Shown piece by piece: positions 2,531 through 42,200 of a DNA stretch of 64,000 nucleotides (position 1 is the first letter of the stretch; each line of letters starts with the position of its first letter). The stretch lies in contig OZ241993.1 in NCBI GenBank assembly GCA_965204575.1, positions 224,001 through 288,000 of the forward strand, written 5' to 3'. Under the pieces are notes generated by a model. The model was given only the letters and a program-made list of their open reading frames with translations. It was not told the origin of the DNA and did no database searches. The DNA comes from an uncultured candidatus Porisulfidus sp. (GTDB taxonomy: Bacteria; Pseudomonadota; Gammaproteobacteria; Poriferisulfidales; Poriferisulfidaceae). The position numbers were made by a program, and so were the translations under genes.

Positions 2531-2672
2531 GGGGCTCATATACAATAATCCGCAAGCAGACCTTGTATATCCATTGACAGATCATCGGGGTCGCTTGACC
2601 GAACCGTGCCCGAAGGCCCGGCCCGGACAGAGGCGAACGCCCCTCCCTGTCCAGCCGCGCCAGTCCCCAACG
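2531..2672 (-). ncRNA. Putative omega-RNA scaffold of E1 (overlaps tnpB 3' end)
   Basis: GGACAG/CTGTC complementarity, GGGGCG..CGC/GCGACCCC stem, C-UUCG-G hairpin, terminal stem pairing into the TIR; nearly identical in E2; boundaries inferred. Confidence 0.65.
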
Positions 2673-3846
2673 CCAATATATTGAACGCGGCATTGATGTC
2701 CGCATTCCCCGCGTATCCGCAGGATACGCATTCGAATCTCTCTCGCCGACGGTTCGCCTCCGCCACATGCCCGCATCGGTGACAACGCTGGCTCGTGTAC
2801 GCCGGGTCGACCGTCTCCACCCGGTGCGCCTTGTACTCCAGCATGAAGCGCAATCGGCCCCAGCCGCTTTCCGCAATGCTCCGGTTCAAGGTGGATTTCG
2901 CCTTGACGTGCTTGCCGGGTTTCTCCACCGTGCCTCTGGCTGACTTCATCATGTTCCTGATCTTCAGACCCTCCACGCAGACCGTCCCGAACCGGTCCGC
3001 CAAGTCATGGCTGACATGGTGCTTCCAGTTGTCCCGGATATAGGCGATCCTCCGGTGCAGTTTCGCCACGATTCTCCGCTCCTTCTCGCGGCGGTGCGAA
3101 TTCACCATGATGGCTTTGCCTTGTCGAGTCACCCTCGGCCCCCCGTCCGCATCCAGCAAAGGCACGCGCTTGCGCCTCTGCATCTTCCGTTGGTGCCGCT
3201 TCAGCCGGGTCTCAAGGCGGGACACGTCCGGCATGAAAATCCGCTCCGGCTCCGTGGTCGCCACGTTCCACTTCCCTAGGTCCAGCCCGACCGCCTCGCC
3301 GTTGTCCGCCAGTTCCGCATCCGGCACTTCCCAGAACACCGACACATACCACTTCCCGTTGGGATGCTTGGCCACCACCGCCTGCTTCGCCTTGCCGTAG
3401 GCCCACGGGTCGCCGCCCTGACGGTGGATCGGCACCCAGCCCACCTTGGTCACGTAGAGTTTGCCGTCCGCAATCCGCACGTTCTGCGGAATCGTGAACG
3501 AATCGCCGGCTTCCTTGTGCTTGAACTTCGGAAAGCCACGTTGGCCCTTCCGGGCCTCTCTCATCGCATCCGCATACCTTTTCAGCGCGTACCGCACTTC
3601 CGTATACGGCAACGCCTTCAGCCATTCGTGGCCTTCGCTGTTGCGCAGCCTCGTGAATGCCAGGCTTAGAGTGAAGAAAGTCGGCGAGGGTTTCTCTCCT
3701 TGCCCTTCTTTATAGGCTTTCATCGCATCCCGGTTCTGTCCGACCGCCCAGTTCCAGACGTAGCGGTTCGCCCCGGCGATGCCGGACAGCAGCTGTCCCC
3801 GGCGCAGGGTGCCGGGATACAGGCGATAGACGGATGAACGGATCAT
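2536..3846 (-). CDS. tnpB: TnpB RNA-guided endonuclease
   Basis: N-terminal YRLYP...ANRYVWNW, RuvC-I GLDLG, RuvC-II VEGL, YTSQ, Zn finger CHRCG/CVSCG, RuvC-III ADINAA; start set at MIRSS by comparison with the second copy. Confidence 0.95.
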   Translation of the reverse strand: MIRSSVYRLYPGTLRRGQLLSGIAGANRYVWNWAVGQNRDAMKAYKEGQGEKPSPTFFTLSLAFTRLRNSEGHEWLKALPYTEVRYALKRYADAMREARKGQRGFPKFKHKEAGDSFTIPQNVRIADGKLYVTKVGWVPIHRQGGDPWAYGKAKQAVVAKHPNGKWYVSVFWEVPDAELADNGEAVGLDLGKWNVATTEPERIFMPDVSRLETRLKRHQRKMQRRKRVPLLDADGGPRVTRQGKAIMVNSHRREKERRIVAKLHRRIAYIRDNWKHHVSHDLADRFGTVCVEGLKIRNMMKSARGTVEKPGKHVKAKSTLNRSIAESGWGRLRFMLEYKAHRVETVDPAYTSQRCHRCGHVAEANRRRERFECVSCGYAGNADINAAFNILALGTGAAGQGGAFASVRAGPSGTVRSSDPDDLSMDIQGLLADYCI

Positions 3847-3852
3847 GAAAGG

Positions 3853-3882
3853 ATTATGCCATGCCGGAAACCGATTCGACAA
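3853..3882 (-). promoter_or_regulatory. Probable sigma70 promoter for leaderless tnpB mRNA
   Basis: TTGTCG-18 bp-CATAAT with extended TGG, 6 nt before ATG; TGGCATAAT and its spacing conserved in E2. Confidence 0.5.
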
Positions 3883-3975
3883 AAACAAGATAAGGTATTG
3901 AATATATACGAATTATCGTGGGTTTTGCGGATTATCGTATACAATTCCCATTTATAGCCTATTGGGTGTTTGAAA

Positions 3976-12185: not shown

Positions 12186-12195
12186 TCCCTAAAGT

Positions 12196-13543
12196 GGCGC
12201 ATCACGGTTTTGTGTGGAATAGAGGGTCAGGGATAATGCTTCCGCGTTTTAGTCTGGAGTGTGGTCTGATGGAAGCAGTGAACAAGTTTTGCGAGATGCT
12301 GATGTTTCTGCATCCGCCGTGGGAGGTGGTCTCGGTGTCCTGTCGGGAAGGAGGCGAGGATCGCAGCCCGGGGCGCGTCACGATCGAGTTGGCCTATCAG
12401 GCGAAGAGCCTGGTGCCGTGTCCGGAATGCGGGACCTTGTGCAAGCGGCACGACACGAAGGCGCGGGAGTGGCGGGACCTGGATTTGATGGGTTGGCGCA
12501 CGACCTTGCGGGCCGAGGTGCCGCGGGCGAACTGCCCGGAGCACGGGATTCGGCAGATCGCGGTGCCGTGGGCGGAGTCCCACGGTCGTTTCACGATGCG
12601 CTTCGAGACGGAGGTGATCGAGGACCTGCTGGCGATGCCGCTGCGGGCGGTGGCGCAGAAGTGGGGGCTGAGCTGGCATCAGGCGGACGGCATCCGCTCG
12701 CGGGCGGTGCGGCGCGGATTGGCGCGACGCGGGCCGCAGGCACCGAAGCGGATCGGCATCGACGAGACCTCGTTCCAGAAGCGGCATGAATATGTCTCGA
12801 TCGTGGTCGATCAGAAGCCGGCGTCCGGGCGCAAGGGGGTGGTGCTGTATGTGGGAGACCGCAAGGATCAGGCAGCGGTGGAGCCGTTTTTCAGAGAGTT
12901 GGGCGACGCCGCCTGCGCGCAGGTTGAGACGGCCGCGATGGATCTGGCGCCGGCCTACATCGCGGCGACCCTGAAGTACACCCAGGCCGACATCTGCATC
13001 GACCGCTTCCATGTGGTGAGCCTGCTCAACCAGGCGGTGGACCAGGTGCGCCGGGCGGAGCACAAGAGGTTGCTGGCGCAAGGCGATGCCCGCCTGGCGG
13101 GCACCCGTTTCGACTGGCTGATGACCGAGGAGCGGATGGGCCCGGCCCGGCGCCAGCGTCTGGAAGCGTTACGCAAGGAGGACCTGAAGGTGGCCCGGGC
13201 CTGGATCCTGAAGGAACGGGCGGCGGAGATCTGGGCGTTGCGCGACCGGACCCTGGCCTACTACGCCTGGGAAGCCTGGCATCAGGCGGCGAAACGCTCG
13301 CGGCTGGCCCCGGTGATCAAGGCGGCGGAGACGATCTGGAAGCATGTGGAAGAGATCCTGAACGCCGCCGTGCTGGGCATCAGCAATGCCCTGTCGGAAT
13401 CCATCAACGCGAAAGTGCAGTGGATCAAACGCCAAGCCTGCGGCTACCGCAGCCGCGAGCGCTTCCGTGAAGCCATCTACTTTCACTTGGGCGGACTCGA
13501 CCTGTATCCGAGACCTCCGTTCCACACAATTCCGTGAAGACCC
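12196..13543 (+). mobile_element. ISL3 family insertion sequence (1348 bp)
   Basis: Ends read inward GGCGCATCACGGTTTTGTGTGGAA / GGGTCTTCACGGAATTGTGTGGAA; perfect TSD CCTAAAGT at 12188-12195 and 13544-13551. Confidence 0.95.
12269..13537 (+). CDS. ISL3 family DDE transposase
   Basis: CPECG Zn finger, IGIDETS, AMDL, IDRFHVV, SNALSESINAK..KRQACGYR. Confidence 0.95.
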   Translation: MEAVNKFCEMLMFLHPPWEVVSVSCREGGEDRSPGRVTIELAYQAKSLVPCPECGTLCKRHDTKAREWRDLDLMGWRTTLRAEVPRANCPEHGIRQIAVPWAESHGRFTMRFETEVIEDLLAMPLRAVAQKWGLSWHQADGIRSRAVRRGLARRGPQAPKRIGIDETSFQKRHEYVSIVVDQKPASGRKGVVLYVGDRKDQAAVEPFFRELGDAACAQVETAAMDLAPAYIAATLKYTQADICIDRFHVVSLLNQAVDQVRRAEHKRLLAQGDARLAGTRFDWLMTEERMGPARRQRLEALRKEDLKVARAWILKERAAEIWALRDRTLAYYAWEAWHQAAKRSRLAPVIKAAETIWKHVEEILNAAVLGISNALSESINAKVQWIKRQACGYRSRERFREAIYFHLGGLDLYPRPPFHTIP

Positions 13544-13603
13544 CCTAAAGTTTGATGCGGCGAGCCTGCCTGAACTGCTGCTACTAGATTCTCCTACTCA
13601 CCC

Positions 13604-36106: not shown

Positions 36107-37480
36107 ATGCTCCACCTGCACGACACCGCAACCCGCAGGAAGGTTGCCTTCGCCCCGCTCGACCCGGAGCGCGTCACCTTGTACGTCTGCGGCCCCACCG
36201 TCTACGACCACATCCATATCGGCAACGCCCGCCCGCTGGTCGTGTTCGACGTGCTGGTCCGCGTGTTGCGATCCCTCTATCCCCAGGTCATCTATGCCCG
36301 CAACCTGACCGACATCGACGACAAGATCCTGGATCGGGCCGAACAGGAGAATTGCCCGTACGACGAACTGACCGCCCGCTACATCGAGGCATTCCACGAG
36401 GTGTGCGCCGCTCTCGGAGGCCTAGAGATCGACCTGGAGCCGCGTGCAACCGAAACCATCCCGGCCATGCTGGAGATGATCCAGACCCTGTTGGATTCGG
36501 ATCACGCCTATGAAGCGGACGGACACATCCTGTTCGCGGTGGACAGTTTCGACGGGTACGGCGAACTGTCCGGGCGGCGGGTGGAGGAAATGCACCCCGG
36601 GGCCCGGGTAGAAGTAGCCGAATACAAGCGCAATCCGGCGGATTTCGTGCTGTGGAAGCCTTCAACGCCGAAACAACCGGGCTGGGACAGCCCGTTCGGG
36701 CGGGGCCGGCCAGGCTGGCACCTGGAGTGCTCGTGCATGATCGCGCATCATCTCGGCCCGACCATCGACATCCACGGCGGCGGTCAGGACCTGGTGTTCC
36801 CGCACCACGAGAACGAGCGCGCGCAGAGTTGTTGCGCTCATCCCGGCGAGTCGTTCGTCCGGCTGTGGATGCATAACGGCTATGTCACGGTCGACGGCGA
36901 AAAAATGTCCAAGTCCATCGGCAATGTGCGCCAAGTCCGGGAGCTTCTCGATCACCATCCGGGCGAACTGCTGCGCCTCGCCCTGCTGCACGCGCATTAC
37001 CGCAAGCCGCTGGACTGGACGGATGACCTGCTCCTTCAGGCGCGTCAGATCCTGGACCGGCTGTACCGGGCCTGGCAGGATGCGGGAAGCCCGGAACCCG
37101 ACGAAACCGAGCCGGATGCGGAATTCCTGCAGGCCCTGCTTGACGACCTCAATACCCCGCTGGCCCTGCAGCACCTGCGGCACGAGGCGGCGGCCCTGGC
37201 CCATCTGCAGGGAACGCAGCGCACGGAGGCCGCCCGGCGGCTGTGCGCCGGCGCCCGGATGCTCGGCCTGTTCGGATCCGCGGCCGAAGACTGGTTCCAT
37301 GCCGGCGCGACGGCCGAGAGCCTGGACGATGCCGAGATCGAAGCCCTACTGGCCGAGCGGCAAGCCGCACGGGAAAACGGGGATTACGCGGCGGCCGACC
37401 GCATCCGCGATCAGCTGTTGGAGGCTGGAATCGCGGTGGAGGACCTAGCGGACGGCAGCCACTGGCGGCGGGTACGGTAG
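36107..37480 (+). CDS. cysS: Cysteine-tRNA ligase
   Basis: CGPTVY, HIGN, GRPGWHLEC, FPHHENE, KMSKS. Confidence 0.98.
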   Translation: MLHLHDTATRRKVAFAPLDPERVTLYVCGPTVYDHIHIGNARPLVVFDVLVRVLRSLYPQVIYARNLTDIDDKILDRAEQENCPYDELTARYIEAFHEVCAALGGLEIDLEPRATETIPAMLEMIQTLLDSDHAYEADGHILFAVDSFDGYGELSGRRVEEMHPGARVEVAEYKRNPADFVLWKPSTPKQPGWDSPFGRGRPGWHLECSCMIAHHLGPTIDIHGGGQDLVFPHHENERAQSCCAHPGESFVRLWMHNGYVTVDGEKMSKSIGNVRQVRELLDHHPGELLRLALLHAHYRKPLDWTDDLLLQARQILDRLYRAWQDAGSPEPDETEPDAEFLQALLDDLNTPLALQHLRHEAAALAHLQGTQRTEAARRLCAGARMLGLFGSAAEDWFHAGATAESLDDAEIEALLAERQAARENGDYAAADRIRDQLLEAGIAVEDLADGSHWRRVR

Positions 37481-37545
37481 ACTGTGCGAATCAAACACTT
37501 CTCTTTGCAAAATGTCTTCGGGAGTTATGCAGACTTGATACAGCC

Positions 37546-38781
37546 ATGAAAGTCCATCGCACCGTCCGCTACCGCCTGCATCCCGGCTCACGCCGGAAAA
37601 ACCAGCAACTGCACGGCACCGCCGAAGCTTGTCGTTTCGTGTGGAACCACATGGTCGGCAAACTCAGGGACGAGTACGAGTTCGGAATCAAGCCGGATTT
37701 CCACTATTACTCGATGGGCAAGGTCTTCACCGTTCTGCGCCGTCACAGCTACAAGTGGTTGCAGGATTATTCGGCATATGTCGTCAAGAGTTCATTGCAA
37801 CCCATCGAGACGGCTTACAAGGAATTCTTCAAGGACGTGAAGACGGGTGGGAAACTCAACCGGAACCCCCCGCAATTCCACGGCAAGTGGACAACCAAGC
37901 CGAGTTTTCCAATCAACTATGTGTCGGCGAAGGTGACGGGAGAGAGCCTGTACGTGCAGAGAATCGGCTGGATGAAGCTGGTCGGCAACAACCCGGACCC
38001 GGACGGCGAATTCAAGTCCGGTCGCGTCTTGCAGGAATGCGGAAACTGGTACGCCTATCTCACTTACGAAGTGCAAGCCGAAGCCAGTCTCCCTCACGCC
38101 ATCAAGGAAGTGGGCATCGACCGCAATGTGAATGAAGACGGGTGGGCGGTATTATCGGACGGCACGAAGCATCCGGGGCCGGATTTGGAGAAGAAAACGG
38201 CACGGCGAAAACGCTACCAGCGCAAGATGGCGCGACAGGTGAAAGGGAGCAACCGCAGAAAGGTCACCAAGGTGAAGTTGCAGAAAGCATTCCGTGCGGA
38301 ATGCTTCGCCCGGTTGAACTGGGCGCACCACGTCAGCAAGAGCATTGCGTCAGAATACGATGTGGCATACATGGAGAAACTGAACATCGGGGACATGACG
38401 AAATCCGCCAAGGGAACGGTGGAGGAACCGGGTACGAACGTAAAAGCGAAGTCCGGGCTGAACCGGAAGATCCTGGCCAGCGCATGGGGCACGCTGGAGT
38501 TGTGCCTGGACTACAAGATGGAAGTGCGCCCTGTACCTCCGGCGTATACCAGCCAGACGTGCCATTCATGCGGGCACGTCGATGAGAAAAACAGAAATGG
38601 AACAGATTTCAAGTGCACCGCTTGCGGGCACGCGGACGATGCGGACGTGAACGCCGCATTGAACATTTTGGCCTTCGGGAATGGGGCGACTGGACGTGGA
38701 GACGGCGGGGTTGCCCGGTCTGAGAAGCGTCAAGAAATGGGACAATCTGGCAGGCGAGAGTCTGCCAAGTTATCTACATAA
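37546..38781 (+). CDS. tnpB: TnpB RNA-guided endonuclease, second lineage
   Basis: YRLHP...CRFVWN, RuvC-I GIDRN, RuvC-II MEKL, YTSQ, CHSCG/CTACG, RuvC-III ADVNAA. Confidence 0.95.
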
Positions 38782-38786
38782 ATCCC
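38683..38786 (+). ncRNA. Putative omega-RNA scaffold of E3
   Basis: GACGT(38693)/GCGTC(38727) pairing, AGAC..GTCT stem, TGGCAGGC-GAGA-GTCTGCCA hairpin extending into the TIR; boundaries inferred. Confidence 0.6.
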
Positions 38787-39257
38787 ATGTCTTCTTTATT
38801 TTCTCCTCGGGAGAGTATCAAGCAAGTCGAAGAAGGGGATCAATTGGCCCCGAAATTCGATGAAAACGGGCTGATCCCCGTGGTGACCACCGACTACGAA
38901 TCCGGCGAAGTGCTGATGGTCGCGTACCAGAACGCCGAGGCGCTGGAGCGGACCATCCGGAGCGGCGAAGCCTGGTACTACAGCCGCAGCCGCCAATGCC
39001 TGTGGCACAAGGGCGCCACCAGCGGACTGGTGCAGAAAGTGCGCGAACTGCGCATCGACGACGACCAGGACACGGTCTGGATGCGCGTGACGGTCGCAGG
39101 CTCCGGCGCCAGTTGCCACGTCGGCTACCGCTCCTGCTTCTACCGCAAGGTGCCGACCGGGGATTCGGCCGGCCAAGCGCTGGAACACCTGGAACGCGAC
39201 AAAACCTTCGACCCCGATGAGGTCTACGGCGACGCTGAAAATCCGACCCGCCTGTAA
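38787..39257 (+). CDS. hisI: Phosphoribosyl-AMP cyclohydrolase
   Basis: [38 protein letters not shown]. Confidence 0.95.
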
Positions 39258-39271
39258 CCCCCGCACTGCCG

Positions 39272-42200
39272 ATGCCTTCGACCTTCCGTTTGCTGCTGAC
39301 ACGGCGGCTCGGCCCTTTCTTCTTCACCCAGCTGACCGGGGCCTACAACGACAACGTCTTCCGTAACGCGCTGGTCGTCCTGATCACCTACCGCATTACC
39401 GAACTGGCCGGATTCGGAAGCGAAGAACTGGTTGCCGCCTCCGCCGGGATCTTCCTGCTCCCTTTCCTGCTGTTCTCCGCCCTGGGCGGAAAACTGGCCG
39501 ATCACTTTCCGCGGCACCGGCTGATCCAGCACATCAAGCTCGCGGAATGCGCCCTGATGGCACTGACCTGGATCGGTTTTGCCACCGGGTCAGTCACCTT
39601 TCTGTTCGTCATCCTGTTCTTGACCGGACTGCAGTCCGCCCTGTTCGGTCCGGTGAAGTACGCCATCCTGCCGAACCTGCTGTCCCGGGCCGAACTGCTG
39701 GCCGGCAACGCCTGGATCGCGGTCGGCACGTTCATCTCCATCCTCGCCGGAAGCCTGACCGGAACTCTCGTAATGGGTGTTCCCGACGCCGCCCTGTGGG
39801 TGCCCGGCATCCTGGTGATCAGCGCCGGGGCCGGTTACCTGGCAAGCCACCGGATTCCGGCGCAGGTTCCCGCCGGCGCCGGTCTGCGGCTCTCGTTCGA
39901 GCCGTTCAGCGAAACCGCGCGGATCGTGCGAGAAGGCCTGAGCCAGCCTCGCCTGGCCTGGCTGATGCTCGCCATCAGCTGGTTCTGGATGATCGGGGTT
40001 GGCATGCTCGTTCAGTTGCCGCTGTTCGTCCGGGACGTGCTGGCCGGCAACGAGCAGGCATTGGCGGGCGCGCTTGCGATCTTCACCGTCGGCGTCGGGC
40101 TCGGTGCCCTGTTGTGCAACCGCTGGCTCGGCGGCACGGCGCGGGCGACCCTGGCACCCATATCCGCAGCGGCCTTGGGCGCCGGCTTCGTGTTGCTCAG
40201 CCTCGTTCCCCCGGCCGATGTTCCGCTTCGCGGATTCGCCGACCTGCTGGAGGACCCGCAGGCCGTAACCGCCCTCGGCATCCTGCTGGCGCTTGCCGTG
40301 GCGGGCGGTTTCTATGTTACGCCCCTGTACACCCTGGTGCAGCAGCGGGCGCCGGAGGACCGGCGCGCGCGGGTCATCGCCTGCAACAACATCCTCAATT
40401 CCATCTTCATGGCGCTGGCCTCGGCGACGTCCATCGTCATTTTCCAGTCCGGCGGCACGATCGTCACCGTGTGGCTGGCCATGGCCGCCACCGCTCTCCT
40501 GGCCGCACTGCTGTTGCTGCATTTCACGCAGGGCAGTTTCCGCCATGTCCTTTTGTGGCCGGTCGCGTCAGTCGTACTGATCACGGAAACGCCCCCGCCC
40601 GGTTCGCTGGTATTCGCCCGGCGTGGAAGCGCCTGGGTCGCCTGGGCGCTGGCTGCCACCATCCCCGGCAAACTTGAAATCCATGTTGCTCCCGCGCTGT
40701 TGCGCCGCGCGAGCCTGCGACTGCTCGCCTGCTGGGTCCGCCTGAAACCGCTGGACCCCGCGGCCCTGGACGACCAGTGGCCAGGCAATCAGGATGAACC
40801 CGCCCGCACCGTGCTGATCCTGCCGCCTTCCGGCCCCGAGGGCGAAGCTTCGCTGCTGGAATTGATGCAGACCGCCCGGGAGCGGTCCGGCCGCCCCGTC
40901 GAAGTCGCGTCCGTCAGTGACCCGGAACTCTACATGCCCCGCTTCTACCCGCGCATCCGGGTCGGGTTCGAAAACTGTCCGCTGCCGCCCCGCGCGGCCG
41001 ACGAGCCGGAAGCGCTCCGGCGCGATGCCCTCAAGATCTACGACCTGCTGTGTGAACTGGAATACCGGATGCACTGCCAGGAATGCACGGCATTGCAGTC
41101 CTTGTACGGTGCAGCCCGAAGGTTCGGGGCTGGCTATCCGATCCTGGCCGATCTGGAGCGGACCCTGACGTACCGGCAACTGCTCCAGGCGACCCACGCC
41201 GTCGCCCAGCTGCTTGAGCGGGCCCTGCCGAAGGCACAGGATACGGTCGGCATCCTGCTGCCGAACGCGACCGCCACGCCGATCACTTTTTTCGCCATGC
41301 ACGCGCTTCACCGCATCCCGGTCATGCTCAACTACACCGCCGGGCCAGCCAATGTCGCCAGTGCCTGCCGCACGGCCGGACTGACCCACGTCGTGACTTC
41401 CCGCCGGTTCGTCGAGAAGGCCGACCTTGGAGGCTTGACCGACGCCCTGGCCGGAGACTACGCCCTGCTGTGGCTGGAGGATCTGAGGCCGCAACTGAGC
41501 CTCGGCATGAAACTCAAGGCCGCCTGGCGCGCCATGCGGCCGCCCCCGAAAGGTGATCCCTCGGACCCCGCCGTAGTGCTGTTCACCTCCGGGTCGGAAG
41601 GCGAACCCAAAGGCGTCGTGCTGAGCCACCGAAACCTGCAGCGCAACCGTTGCCAGGTCCGCGCGGTGCTGAACCTGACTCCCCAGGACCACCTGCTGCT
41701 GTGCCTCCCCACCTTTCACTCGTTCGCCTTGGGCGTTGGCCTGCTGCTGCCGTTGATGGCCGGGCTGCGCTGCACCCTGTACCCCAGCCCCCTCCACTAC
41801 AAGCAGATCCCCGAACTGATCCGAAAGCACGATATCACCGTGTTCTTCTCCACCGACACGTTCCTGAACGGCTACGGGCAGGCGGCAAGCCCGGAAGACC
41901 TGCAAAGCCTGCGCTTGATCGTGGCCGGCGCCGAACCGCTCAAGCCGGGCACCCGGAAATTCTGGCAGGACCGTTTCGGTCTGACCGTCCACGAGGGCTA
42001 CGGCGTGACCGAAACCTCACCCGCGGTCAGTGCCAACACGTTTGCGTGCAACCGACCGGGCTCGGTCGGCCGCCTGATGCCGGATATCGAAGCGCGCCTG
42101 GAACCGCTGGACGACTCCCAGGACACCATCGACACCACCCGCGGGCGATTGTTTCTGCGCGGCCCGAACGTGATGTCCGGCTACTGGATGCCGGGGGAAA

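Follow-up and report, generated by a model that had tools for sequence, protein, structure and literature searches.

Cas12 descends from TnpB, which is itself a compact nuclease for genome editing. The biology of TnpB was worked out on IS605 and IS607 elements, which are excised without a scar beside a fixed motif; the characterized TnpBs require a motif of 4-5 nt next to the target, and the cutting of element-free alleles is known to favor retention or spread for the TnpBs of IS605/IS607. Members of the IS1595 family typically make 8-bp target-site duplications (TSDs) and may carry passenger genes. Previous studies have also described TnpBs associated with DDE transposases, namely the branches DDE-1 to DDE-6 and solo TnpBs mobilized in trans (Altae-Tran et al. 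2023, PNAS, PMC10691335). According to the available portion of that paper, TnpB lies inside an inverted-repeat transposon with the 3' end of tnpB near the transposon end, and the solo tnpB copies bear the ends of transposase-bearing elements, which implies mobilization in trans. The same portion, compared by its text, names IS630 as the only DDE family and leaves IS1595 unnamed; in the available part of a 2026 review (PMC13565253), ISL2, IS630, and IS1031 are listed as DDE partners, and IS1595 is unnamed there as well. No report of a TnpB with a partner from IS1595 or an IS1595 subgroup, or of a TnpB with ISL3 and inverted repeats, was found in the literature searched. Fanzor1 and Fanzor2*, as the accessible sections of their source describe them, are lone TnpB-type nucleases in non-autonomous elements of the cut-and-paste type, with the terminal inverted repeat (TIR) predicted to belong to the scaffold of the guide RNA (PMC10711439, NAR 2023).

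In the present study, we analyzed a 64,000-nt stretch of DNA (the window) from an uncultured candidatus Porisulfidus sp. and focused on one tnpB-bearing element, E3. Read from the letters of the window, E3 occupied positions 37520-38786 (1267 bp), and the following features were assigned to it and its flanks:

36107-37480, plus strand: upstream flank gene, a 457-aa ORF, read as cysteinyl-tRNA synthetase (cysS) from sequence motifs
37512-37519, no strand: left copy of the TSD, ATGTCTTC, found as a single copy in the empty site of congeners
37520-37545, plus strand: left TIR, which is the entire 26-bp 5' leader of tnpB
37546-38781, plus strand: intact tnpB ORF, 411 aa plus stop codon, from translation, Pfam, structure alignment, and omega
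38609-38786, plus strand: putative scaffold of the guide RNA (omega RNA), which overlaps tnpB at its 3' end, from conservation, RNAalifold, and dS
38737-38779, plus strand: terminal hairpin, with the inner right TIR as its 3' arm and the adjoining upstream sequence as its 5' arm
38760-38786, plus strand: right TIR, 27 nt, within the end of the tnpB ORF and slightly beyond
38787-38794, no strand: right copy of the TSD, ATGTCTTC, spanning the start codon of hisI and five bases after it
38787-39257, plus strand: downstream flank gene, a 156-aa ORF, read by eye as hisI (phosphoribosyl-AMP cyclohydrolase)

The left end of E3 started with GGGAGTTATGCAGA at 37520, and the right end closed with TCTACATAAATCCC at 38786 (reverse complement, GGGATTTATGTAGA). 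The two ends matched at 12 of the 14 outer bases, and the inverted repeat reached about 26-27 nt when a 2-nt indel was allowed. The ATG of tnpB was located at 37546 after a leader of 26 bp, compared with 37-53 bp in sister copies, and the stop codon at 38779-38781 left 5 bp to the element end. A sequence-only reading of this DNA had claimed TIRs, a ATGTCTTC duplication, and 26 bp before the ATG; all of these were present, and the TIR was longer than claimed. The tnpB gene was the sole gene-sized reading frame filling E3, and a DDE transposase of its own with an N-terminal zinc ribbon was absent, indicating that E3 is a non-autonomous derivative and not an insertion sequence in the strict sense. 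In having tnpB as the only gene, a guide-RNA region at the 3' end, a length within 1.2-1.4 kb, and a transposase encoded elsewhere, E3 resembled the IS1341 group. It shared its position inside inverted repeats with the published DDE-associated TnpBs but differed from those branches, as far as the available text of PMC10691335 describes them, in that no copy of its lineage had a transposase in cis; it also differed in an 8-bp TSD shown by an empty site and in a TIR folded into the putative scaffold. Fanzors differ in their eukaryotic or viral hosts and their other transposon superfamilies, and, in the sections available, their scaffold also includes the TSD, beyond which the guide begins (PMC10711439).

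One alternative is that E3 is an ordinary solo tnpB of the IS200/IS605 type (IS1341 group), with inverted ends and a repeated 8-mer that arose by chance. Loci with tnpB only are the commonest TnpB context in the available portion of Altae-Tran 2023 (PMC10691335), and homologues of about 30% identity in other Gammaproteobacteria had no TIRs; their 3' tails were long, as is usual. According to the part of the review at hand (PMC13565253), IS200/IS605 elements of the IS1341 group have no TIRs and no TSDs and insert beside a fixed 4-5-nt motif, whereas E3 lacked such a motif and had both TIRs (about 27 nt) and a TSD (8 bp). The cysS-hisI site was empty in 8 of the 15 congeners searched, with the flanks abutting and one shared copy of the 8-mer. 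The flanks overlapped by 8 nt in five of these genomes (G011, G002, G003, G012, and G005) and by 9 nt in three (G009, G001, and G007); the empty site in G011 was gcaaaATGTCTTCtttatt. The 3' part of cysS was 73-96% identical in the congeners and adjoined hisI there, and no element was found at this site in any of the 15. Because the empty sites held the 8-mer once, E3 is a genuine insertion that produced a TSD of 8 bp. These results demonstrated that E3 inserted between cysS and hisI, duplicating an 8-bp target; the hisI ORF remained intact, and all sequence 5' of its ATG was replaced. The comparison of empty sites thus refuted a chance duplication and, with it, the solo-tnpB explanation. The same explanation is contradicted by TSDs far above the control rate in the family, by TIRs up to 25/26 identical to those of IS1595 elements, by the lack of a Y1 transposase in the genome, and by the 26 bp before the ATG and 5 bp past the stop codon, which leave no room for IS605-type ends. 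We consider that it has virtually no chance of being correct.

The design of E3 was then compared across relatives, most of which were metagenome-assembled genomes. The 1.82-Mb genome contained 16 tnpB loci (18 matches, with two frameshifted loci each counted twice), in agreement with the prediction of many copies genome-wide. E3 belonged to a diverged TnpB lineage with 7 copies in this genome and more in relatives, and the copies of this lineage had TIRs of about 27 bp and 8-bp TSDs. The ends of 27 E3-lineage loci were examined with a motif-anchored caller, which called 26; L082 failed at a contig end. Both ends matched at 8 or more of 12 positions in 22 of the 26 called loci. The TSD in these 22 matched at 8/8 in 7 loci, at 7/8 in 5, at 6/8 in 2, and at 5/8 or fewer in the remaining 8, while 7 of the 462 mismatched left/right pairs that served as the control reached 6/8 or better. 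One locus (c444k) scored 0/8 with the automatic caller, yet a perfect TGGATATA was seen by eye. A two-peptide-pattern search returned the genus and a few matches of about 30%, and the order-level relatives came from a genome search. Five genomes of other families in the order contributed 20 loci, of which 13 had a TSD match of 7/8 or better, including 9 perfect ones. A genome of another family outside the order, taken from the class sample (G408, 50% amino acid identity), had the same TIR as the E3 lineage and a perfect AAAATAAA TSD at one of its two copies. The combination of TIR and 8-bp TSD was therefore not a one-off, as had been argued from E3 itself, but common to the genome, the genus, other families, and one genome outside the order; homologues of 50-83% identity had TIRs and TSDs, and not the IS605/IS607 ends without a TSD that had been named as contrary evidence, and TIRs were lacking only in the homologues of about 30% identity. 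The TIR subtypes were scattered over the TnpB tree, with 10 changes against a minimum of 4, so the ends have been exchanged repeatedly. An old diversified family and a repeated capture had been offered as alternatives; both applied, since the lineage is old and diversified and its ends were swapped repeatedly.

Ends that matched these were found on autonomous elements within the genus. A 2680-bp element in G005 (L031) encoded a transposase with DDE_Tnp_IS1595 and Zn_ribbon_IS1595 domains and a methylase-HNH passenger, and it was bounded by perfect TIRs of 40 bp, with GGCCATTT as the TSD. Over its initial 26 bases, the L031 TIR matched the TnpB elements c436k (G000) and L078 (in G005 itself) at 25 of 26 positions. 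Two autonomous IS1595 elements of 1246 bp with perfect TSDs (L161 and L162, G013) corresponded to the subtype of E3, matching E3 (right TIR) at 21/24 and its sister L074 at 23/24, and the elements L041 and L039 matched two more TIR subtypes of the TnpB elements. All of the autonomous elements L031, L041, L161, L162, L163, and L168 had perfect 8-bp TSDs. These results indicated that the ends of E3 are homologous, by sequence comparison, to those of autonomous IS1595 elements in the same genus. The earlier guess of IS1595 was thus right for E3, and the suggested pairing of TIRs with distinct IS1595 subfamilies held in that each TIR subtype of the TnpB elements paired with a different autonomous variant in the genus. 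E3 and the IS1595 insertion sequences had the same TIR sequence and 8-bp TSD, and the genus also had IS1595 elements with a methylase passenger; in E3 the transposase was lost and tnpB was carried instead. We also considered a mover from another DDE family that makes 8-bp TSDs, for which ISL3 was the candidate. Three intact ISL3 elements of 1348 bp each, with perfect 8-bp TSDs, were present in this genome, and the third TnpB family of the genome had ISL3-type ends, not IS1595 ends. The ends of E3 started with GGGAGTTATG, whereas the ISL3 ends here started with GGCGCATCACGG and GGGTCTTCACGG, and the E3 subtype matched IS1595 elements at 21-23 of 24 positions. A mover of this kind is extremely unlikely for E3.

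Overall, E3 is probably a non-autonomous DDE transposon of the IS1595 family whose only cargo is tnpB and its guide-RNA scaffold. Because tnpB stands alone within IS1595-type ends and an 8-bp TSD, the nuclease appears to have moved from its usual IS605 carriers to a DDE-type transposon.

The TnpB protein of E3 matched PF12323 (HTH_OrfB_IS605, 27.2 bits), PF01385 (OrfB_IS605, 43.5 bits), and PF07282 (Cas12f1-like_TNB, 65.7 bits), all above the cut-offs, and it aligned over its full length with the solved TnpB chains 8bf8/8exa (E 7e-28). GIDRN, YMEKLN, and a third 10-residue stretch matched the corresponding motifs of solved TnpB-type chains, and CHSCGH and CTACGH formed a CxxC...CxxC zinc finger aligned to those chains. 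The acidic catalytic residues of RuvC were in place in this alignment. The divergence of E3 from the TnpBs E1 and E2 that had been asserted was borne out: E3 was 36% identical to E1 over 403 aa, and E1 had GLDLG and an insertion of about 21 aa, whereas E3 had GIDRN and lacked the insertion. A single uninterrupted match was obtained for 24 of the 27 tnpB copies of the E3 lineage, and the median omega was about 0.15 over residues 1-330 of the diverged copies. These results demonstrated that the TnpB of the E3 lineage is under purifying selection, and we infer from its sequence that it is presumably an active RNA-guided nuclease.

At the 3' end of tnpB, the nucleotides of the putative scaffold region were near-invariant among 25 copies, and dS was 0.35 in the last ~80 codons compared with 0.85 in the tnpB core. 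The conservation and the suppressed dS reached about 180 nt, compared with 27 nt for the TIR. In the RNAalifold consensus, GGGAAT paired with the terminal ATTCCC as the closing helix. For most of the 25 copies, the fold of minimum energy contained a hairpin of this type at the 3' end, its arm sequences varied with the TIR subtype, and both-side changes at columns 234/255 and 237/252 numbered 4 to 8. The 3' end of tnpB therefore fits, at the level of sequence, a putative guide-RNA scaffold that absorbed the TIR. E3 itself had a 24-nt deletion in the scaffold relative to most copies and an A-A mismatch in the closing helix; together with the 2 mismatches among the 14 outer TIR bases, these changes suggested that the E3 copy may be decaying. 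Two sponge metatranscriptome contig sets covered only small parts of the locus: contigs began at 38793/38794 and ran into hisI with 7 differences each, and short tnpB pieces were found at 90-95% likeness.

Two further explanations were weighed against these results. In one, a canonical TnpB element landed inside a miniature shell derived from IS1595, and the two parts are not functionally integrated. This genome contained a 565-bp TIR-bounded element without tnpB and with a perfect TSD, AAAATCGC, so such shells were available as landing sites, and a nested insertion could be how the E3 lineage began. However, the right TIR is embedded in the tnpB ORF, where it supplies one side of a hairpin covarying with the TIR subtype, the left TIR adjoins the start codon, and this tight layout of ends and ORF was kept in more than 40 copies from several bacterial families, which is not expected of repeated accidents; a nested insertion is thus very unlikely as an account of E3. 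In the other, TnpB has ceased to serve the transposon as a nuclease and is a decaying or domesticated passenger, and the 3' conservation results from transposase binding alone. The scaffold deletion and the shortened leader of E3 agree with this, as do the lack of an available transposase in this genome and the putative status of the scaffold RNA, for which an Rfam scan of 37400-38900 with E up to 1 gave no match. Against it stand the omega of ~0.15 across diverged copies, the intact catalytic and zinc-finger motifs, and the extension of conservation and low dS far past the TIR; moreover, the E3-type deletion variant has itself transposed. The closest congener carried an E3-type copy at another locus, 98% identical over the last 284 nt and present as two contig-end halves, each flanked by CCTTGGAT. 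We regard the passenger explanation as unlikely. Mobility was also evident in G009, in which six copies were 95.7-99.0% identical, with TSDs that were perfect in three, 7/8 in one, and lacking in two; this is the most recent burst of copies in the comparison.

The transposase that moved E3 was sought in the same genomes. In this single-contig genome of 98.75% completeness, no match to Y1_Tnp (PF01797) was found, and none to the resolvase/serine transposase family (PF00239); E3 thus differed from IS607 both in having a TIR and a TSD and in lacking a serine-recombinase transposase in the genome. The genome had one IS1595 DDE transposase, which was frameshifted and split into pieces of 203 and 103 aa, and no convincing inverted repeat was found at the right end of this broken copy. 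Since the sole IS1595 transposase here is frameshifted, E3 is probably stranded in this genome now. G009 carried an intact IS1595 ORF, around which no TIRs were found with up to 3 mismatches allowed. When the coordinates of 65 IS1595-DDE matches and of the TnpB matches in 31 genomes were compared by eye, no pair lay within 3 kb, and the nearest DDE/TnpB pairs were about 3.5 and 7.6 kb apart. With no transposase found in cis with any TnpB of the E3 lineage, we infer mobilization in trans from the identity of the ends alone.

With E3 read as a non-autonomous IS1595-family transposon, the following mechanism may be proposed. An IS1595 transposase supplied in trans would bind the inverted repeats of about 27 bp and move the element. 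The final ~180 nt of the element would be the template of the scaffold RNA, which would have absorbed the transposase-binding site; the inner TIR would serve as the 3' arm of the terminal hairpin, and the six closing bases of the element would pair with the upstream GGGAAT. The guide would begin where the element ends and continue through the TSD into the right flank, which here is the start of hisI. TnpB carrying such a guide could cut alleles without the element, which would favor retention or spread.

A broader and more tentative proposal, which we hold to be possible but doubtful, is that a clade of TnpBs has adapted to DDE transposons with 8-bp TSDs, with a scaffold rebuilt around the TIR through a covarying hairpin and a closing helix, a guide starting in the TSD, and a purine rule at the target. 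The clade would comprise three families sharing an insertion after RuvC-II, with IS1595 carriers for two and ISL3 for the third; the three TnpB families of this genome were 31-36% identical to one another. The closing helix in the clade would end exactly at the element boundary, and a swap of the TIR "chassis" would have the RNA arm swapped or re-evolved along with it. Inspection of 13 sites revealed no fixed motif of 4-5 nt preceding the TSD. Immediately before the left TSD, read along the sense strand of tnpB, a purine was present in all 25 independent TSD-confirmed insertions, compared with 10 of 25 at the mirror position (Fisher p = 3e-6), and seven further sites agreed by eye. Among seven autonomous IS1595 elements, the two positions held a purine in 3/7 and 4/7. 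A minimal purine rule would thus replace the usual 4-5-nt target-adjacent motif. At the occupied locus, the corresponding position is a C of the terminal CCC of the TIR, by which the site of the element itself would be spared. If this holds, TnpB would serve DDE insertion sequences as a module for homing or retention that is sensitive to orientation.

Taken together, the E3 lineage points to a TnpB long resident on IS1595-type DDE transposons, with variable targets and an 8-bp duplication, and it may be regarded as the equivalent in bacteria of what Fanzors represent in eukaryotes. The lineage offers a system in which one can test how a single DNA end is shared by a guide RNA and a DDE transposase, and how the demand for a target motif changes once the transposase stops supplying it. 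A relaxed motif would have practical interest for editing.

The features of E3, a 1267-bp element at 37520..38786 carrying tnpB, were read in 37300-39000 and are given below with those of E1 and E2.

37512-37519, left copy of the target-site duplication (TSD), ATGTCTTC
From 37520, left end of E3, GGGAGTTATGCAGA
37546, ATG of tnpB, with 26 bp of element 5' of it
38779-38781, stop of the uninterrupted 411-codon tnpB frame
38786, last base of the right end of E3, TCTACATAAATCCC
38787-38794, right copy of the TSD, ATGTCTTC
2536..3949 (E1) and 42617..~44000 (E2), both on the minus strand, the remaining tnpB copies of the window, of a family 36% identical to E3

The perfect 8-bp flank repeat and the 26 bp before the ATG, both reported in the sequence-only reading, were seen at 37512-38794. 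The ends of E3 were identical at 12 of the 14 outer nt, and the terminal inverted repeat (TIR) reached ~26-27 nt when a 2-nt indel was allowed. All three Pfam domains of TnpB were found in the E3 protein, which aligned end to end with solved TnpB chains and retains the RuvC and zinc-finger motifs. The described divergence from E1 was also confirmed (36% protein identity); E1 has GLDLG plus a ~21-aa insertion, which is absent from E3. A longer 512-aa ORF at 37243..38781 was set aside, because it arises only where the upstream gene's end runs in frame into tnpB. Separately, a ~15-aa insertion after RuvC-II (residues ~285-305 of the E3 protein, P0001) was common to the three TnpB families of this genome and absent from the solved TnpB-type chain aligned with E3. 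This insertion may mark a TnpB clade living on DDE transposons.

The genome, one 1.82-Mb contig (98.75% complete), contained 16 tnpB loci, as expected from the earlier guess of many copies genome-wide. They formed family A (E1, E2 and one more), family B, the E3 lineage (E3 and six others, two frameshifted), and family C (six copies). DNA identity to E3 was 73-82% for the remaining members of family B. The ends of 27 family-B loci (own genome and 20 copies from congeners, the genomes of the same genus) were called with a motif-anchored caller. The calling succeeded for 26, with one failure at a contig end, and both ends matched at 8/12 or better in 22. The TSD scores of these 22 loci, most relatives being metagenome-assembled genomes and related copies not being independent observations, were 8/8 in seven, 7/8 in five, 6/8 in two, 5/8 in two, 3/8 in three, 1/8 in two and 0/8 in one. 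Just 7 of 462 mismatched left/right control pairs reached at least 6/8, and the control's single 8/8 and single 7/8 stemmed from one orthologous pair. The automatic 0/8 at c444k, a further tnpB copy of the genome, was a mis-call; by eye, its TSD was perfect (TGGATATA). Collecting, clustering and end-calling the loci, as the sequence-only reading had proposed, thus indicated that family B shares the E3 design, with TSDs well above the control. The TIRs of E1/E2 begin GGGAATTGTATACGATAATCCGCAA, near one E3-family TIR subtype (a variant end sequence), and the TSD of E1 was perfect (CTATAAAT). Six copies in the congener G009 were 95.7-99.0% identical, with a perfect TSD in three, 7/8 in one and none in two. 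The nearest congener carried an E3-type copy with 98% identity over the last 284 nt and a scaffold deletion as in E3. This copy was at a different locus, split across two contig ends, each flanked by CCTTGGAT; its location indicates that the E3 subtype has moved since these two genomes separated. A 115-nt fragment at genome 1696..1809, outside the window, showed 86% identity to the E3 5' end and seems to be what is left of a further copy.

The insertion site was searched with 36700-39300 as the query against 30 related genomes, including 15 congeners. Eight of the 15 congeners had the two flanks, left (query 1-820/821) and right (query 2087/2088-2601), adjacent and overlapping, by 8 nt in G011, G002, G003, G012 and G005 and by 9 nt in G009, G001 and G007. 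The empty site of G011, whose flanks were 96% identical to those of E3, was gcaaaATGTCTTCtttattttctcc. No element was found at the E3 site in any of the 15 congeners searched. Since the flanks overlap in the congeners, the 8-mer is present there once, and the 8-mer repeat of E3 is a true target-site duplication. With its 8 bases, including the start codon, the right TSD copy (38787..38794) opens the downstream ORF, which was read by eye as hisI. This ORF remained whole after the insertion, and everything 5' of its ATG was replaced. The duplication restored the start codon of the putative hisI, the native upstream region of which is now 1.27 kb off, and the tnpB stop lies, on the same strand, 5 nt 5' of its ATG. 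The putative hisI probably relies on read-through from E3 for its expression.

Neither a Y1 transposase nor a serine recombinase was found in this genome (98.75% complete), and its sole IS1595-type DDE was split into 203- and 103-aa pieces adjoining a methylase gene. IS1595-type DDE matches were present in 13 of 15 congeners and 7 of 7 genomes of a sister family, and several elements were complete. The 2680-bp locus L031 (G005) encodes a 307-aa DDE_Tnp_IS1595/Zn_ribbon_IS1595 transposase and a methylase-HNH passenger between perfect 40-bp TIRs, with the TSD GGCCATTT. Perfect 8-bp TSDs were also observed at L041, L161, L162, L163 and L168. The first 26 bases of the L031 TIR matched both c436k, a tnpB copy of our genome, and L078, from L031's own genome, at 25/26. 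The TIR of L161/L162 matched the E3 subtype at 23/24 (L074) and 21/24 (E3), and two further subtypes were resembled by L041 and L039. A match to distinct IS1595 variants, which the sequence-only reading had proposed to test, was recovered, and on sequence similarity, the TIRs of the TnpB elements are those of autonomous IS1595-type elements in the genus. In 31 genomes (coordinates compared by eye), every TnpB was more than 3 kb from the nearest IS1595 DDE. The TnpB elements are thus non-autonomous and would be mobilised in trans. Outside the window, a 565-bp element (genome 16578..17142) carries E3-family-type TIRs and lacks tnpB; its 8-bp TSD is perfect (AAAATCGC), and it resembles a miniature form derived from this IS1595 group.

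Other DDE elements were also noticed. In four genomes of the genus (L019, at genome 1080522-1083716, L031, L039 and L062), an IS1595-type transposase gene was followed by a DNA methylase gene, with an HNH or T5orf172 domain in two of the loci. Both genes of L031 lie inside one TIR pair, and this arrangement is an IS1595 form with a methylase passenger. L151, L152 and L157 of G030 belong to a different, very short IS1595 subgroup. They are 753 bp long, their TIRs start with GGTACTTGACTAG, their 8-bp TSDs are A/T-rich, and each has an IS1595-type DDE match of 226 aa; G030 has eight such DDE matches. The window also contains an intact ISL3-family element.

12196..13543, ISL3-family IS with DDE_Tnp_ISL3, Zn_ribbon_ISL3 and HTH_Tnp_ISL3 (Pfam); perfect 8-bp TSD CCTAAAGT at 12188..12195 and 13544..13551

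Two further ISL3 copies with perfect TSDs were at genome ~36848-38195 and 396974-398321. The TIRs of the window ISL3 resemble the ends of family-C TnpB (six copies, outside the window); within this single genome, TnpB thus rides on two separate DDE families.

Five genomes of other families in the order carried TnpBs starting MK(T/V)HRTIRYRLHP, with TIRs beginning GGGAATTATATA and 8-bp TSDs; the TSD score was at least 7/8 in 13 of 20 order-level loci and perfect in 9. In a class-wide search of an even sample of 400 genomes plus our own (E 1e-40 or better), TnpB matches were found in 8/401 genomes, our own counted. The sequence-only reading had allowed for close E3 homologues without a TSD; two copies of ~50% identity in G408, from another family, kept the same TIRs, one with a perfect TSD (AAAATAAA). 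Four matches of 30-33% identity had no TIRs (best 11-13/16) and long 3' tails of the usual type. The four TIR subtypes were scattered on a tree of 24 family-B proteins built without the C-terminal tail (10 changes needed vs a minimum of 4); for subtype i, at least 4 changes were forced by well-supported branches. This scatter indicates that ends and nuclease genes were re-paired repeatedly; the tree may be blurred by recombination between copies.

No fixed 4-5-nt motif was seen 5' of the TSD in the genus sites. The base directly 5' of the left TSD (tnpB sense strand) was a purine in 13/13 genus sites and 12/12 independent order-level sites (one duplicate row dropped), compared with 10/25 at the mirror position (Fisher p = 3e-6), in a small sample of sites sharing ancestry of habitat and lineage. 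Seven more sites read by eye (four in G009, E1, G408 and the G011 copy) all had a purine. Seven autonomous IS1595 elements had purines in 3/7 and 4/7 at the two positions, and the single tnpB-less miniature element had T. In the occupied site, the corresponding position is the C of the TIR. DDE integration should be orientation-blind; thus the bias hints at selection through TnpB, hypothetically as a minimal target-adjacent rule.

A single uninterrupted match was obtained for 24 of 27 family-B copies. Pairwise Nei-Gojobori estimates for 11 copies gave a median dN/dS of 0.15 and dS of 0.85 over residues 1-330; in the last ~80 codons, dS fell to 0.35 with the same dN, the pattern expected where a structured RNA overlaps a reading frame. 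The last ~180 nt were almost invariant among 25 copies. RNAalifold paired an invariant GGGAAT (within the FGNG codons) with the right TIR's terminal ATTCCC, so the consensus structure ends precisely where the element does. When the last 62 nt of the copies were folded one by one, most gave a long hairpin, with the inner TIR as the 3' arm and the sequence directly upstream as the 5' arm. The arms vary by TIR subtype yet remain complementary, with both-side changes at two pairs in 4 and 8 sequences (joint alignment). We read the 3' region as a putative guide-RNA scaffold that has incorporated the transposase-binding site into its fold; RNA production, TnpB nuclease activity and the start of the guide are all predictions. 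In E3 itself, a 24-nt deletion affects the scaffold region, the closing helix contains an A-A mismatch and the leader is shortened. PMC10711439 likewise proposes a transposase-binding site within the scaffold structure for Fanzor elements.

Altae-Tran et al. 2023 (PMC10691335) describe six TnpB branches linked to DDE transposases, each having inverted terminal repeats, and solo TnpBs that share ends with transposase-bearing elements and are mobilised in trans; IS630 is the sole DDE family named in that text. A 2026 review (PMC13565253) lists ISL2, IS630 and IS1031. Our literature search found no paper linking TnpB with IS1595 or ISL3, and the figure or SI of PMC10691335 may cover this lineage. 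TnpB on a DDE transposon moved in trans is therefore already known, and E3 is alike, its own movement in trans being likely. Apparently new are the partner family and its proof from the empty site, a TIR structurally merged with the putative scaffold, the end swapping and the flank asymmetry.
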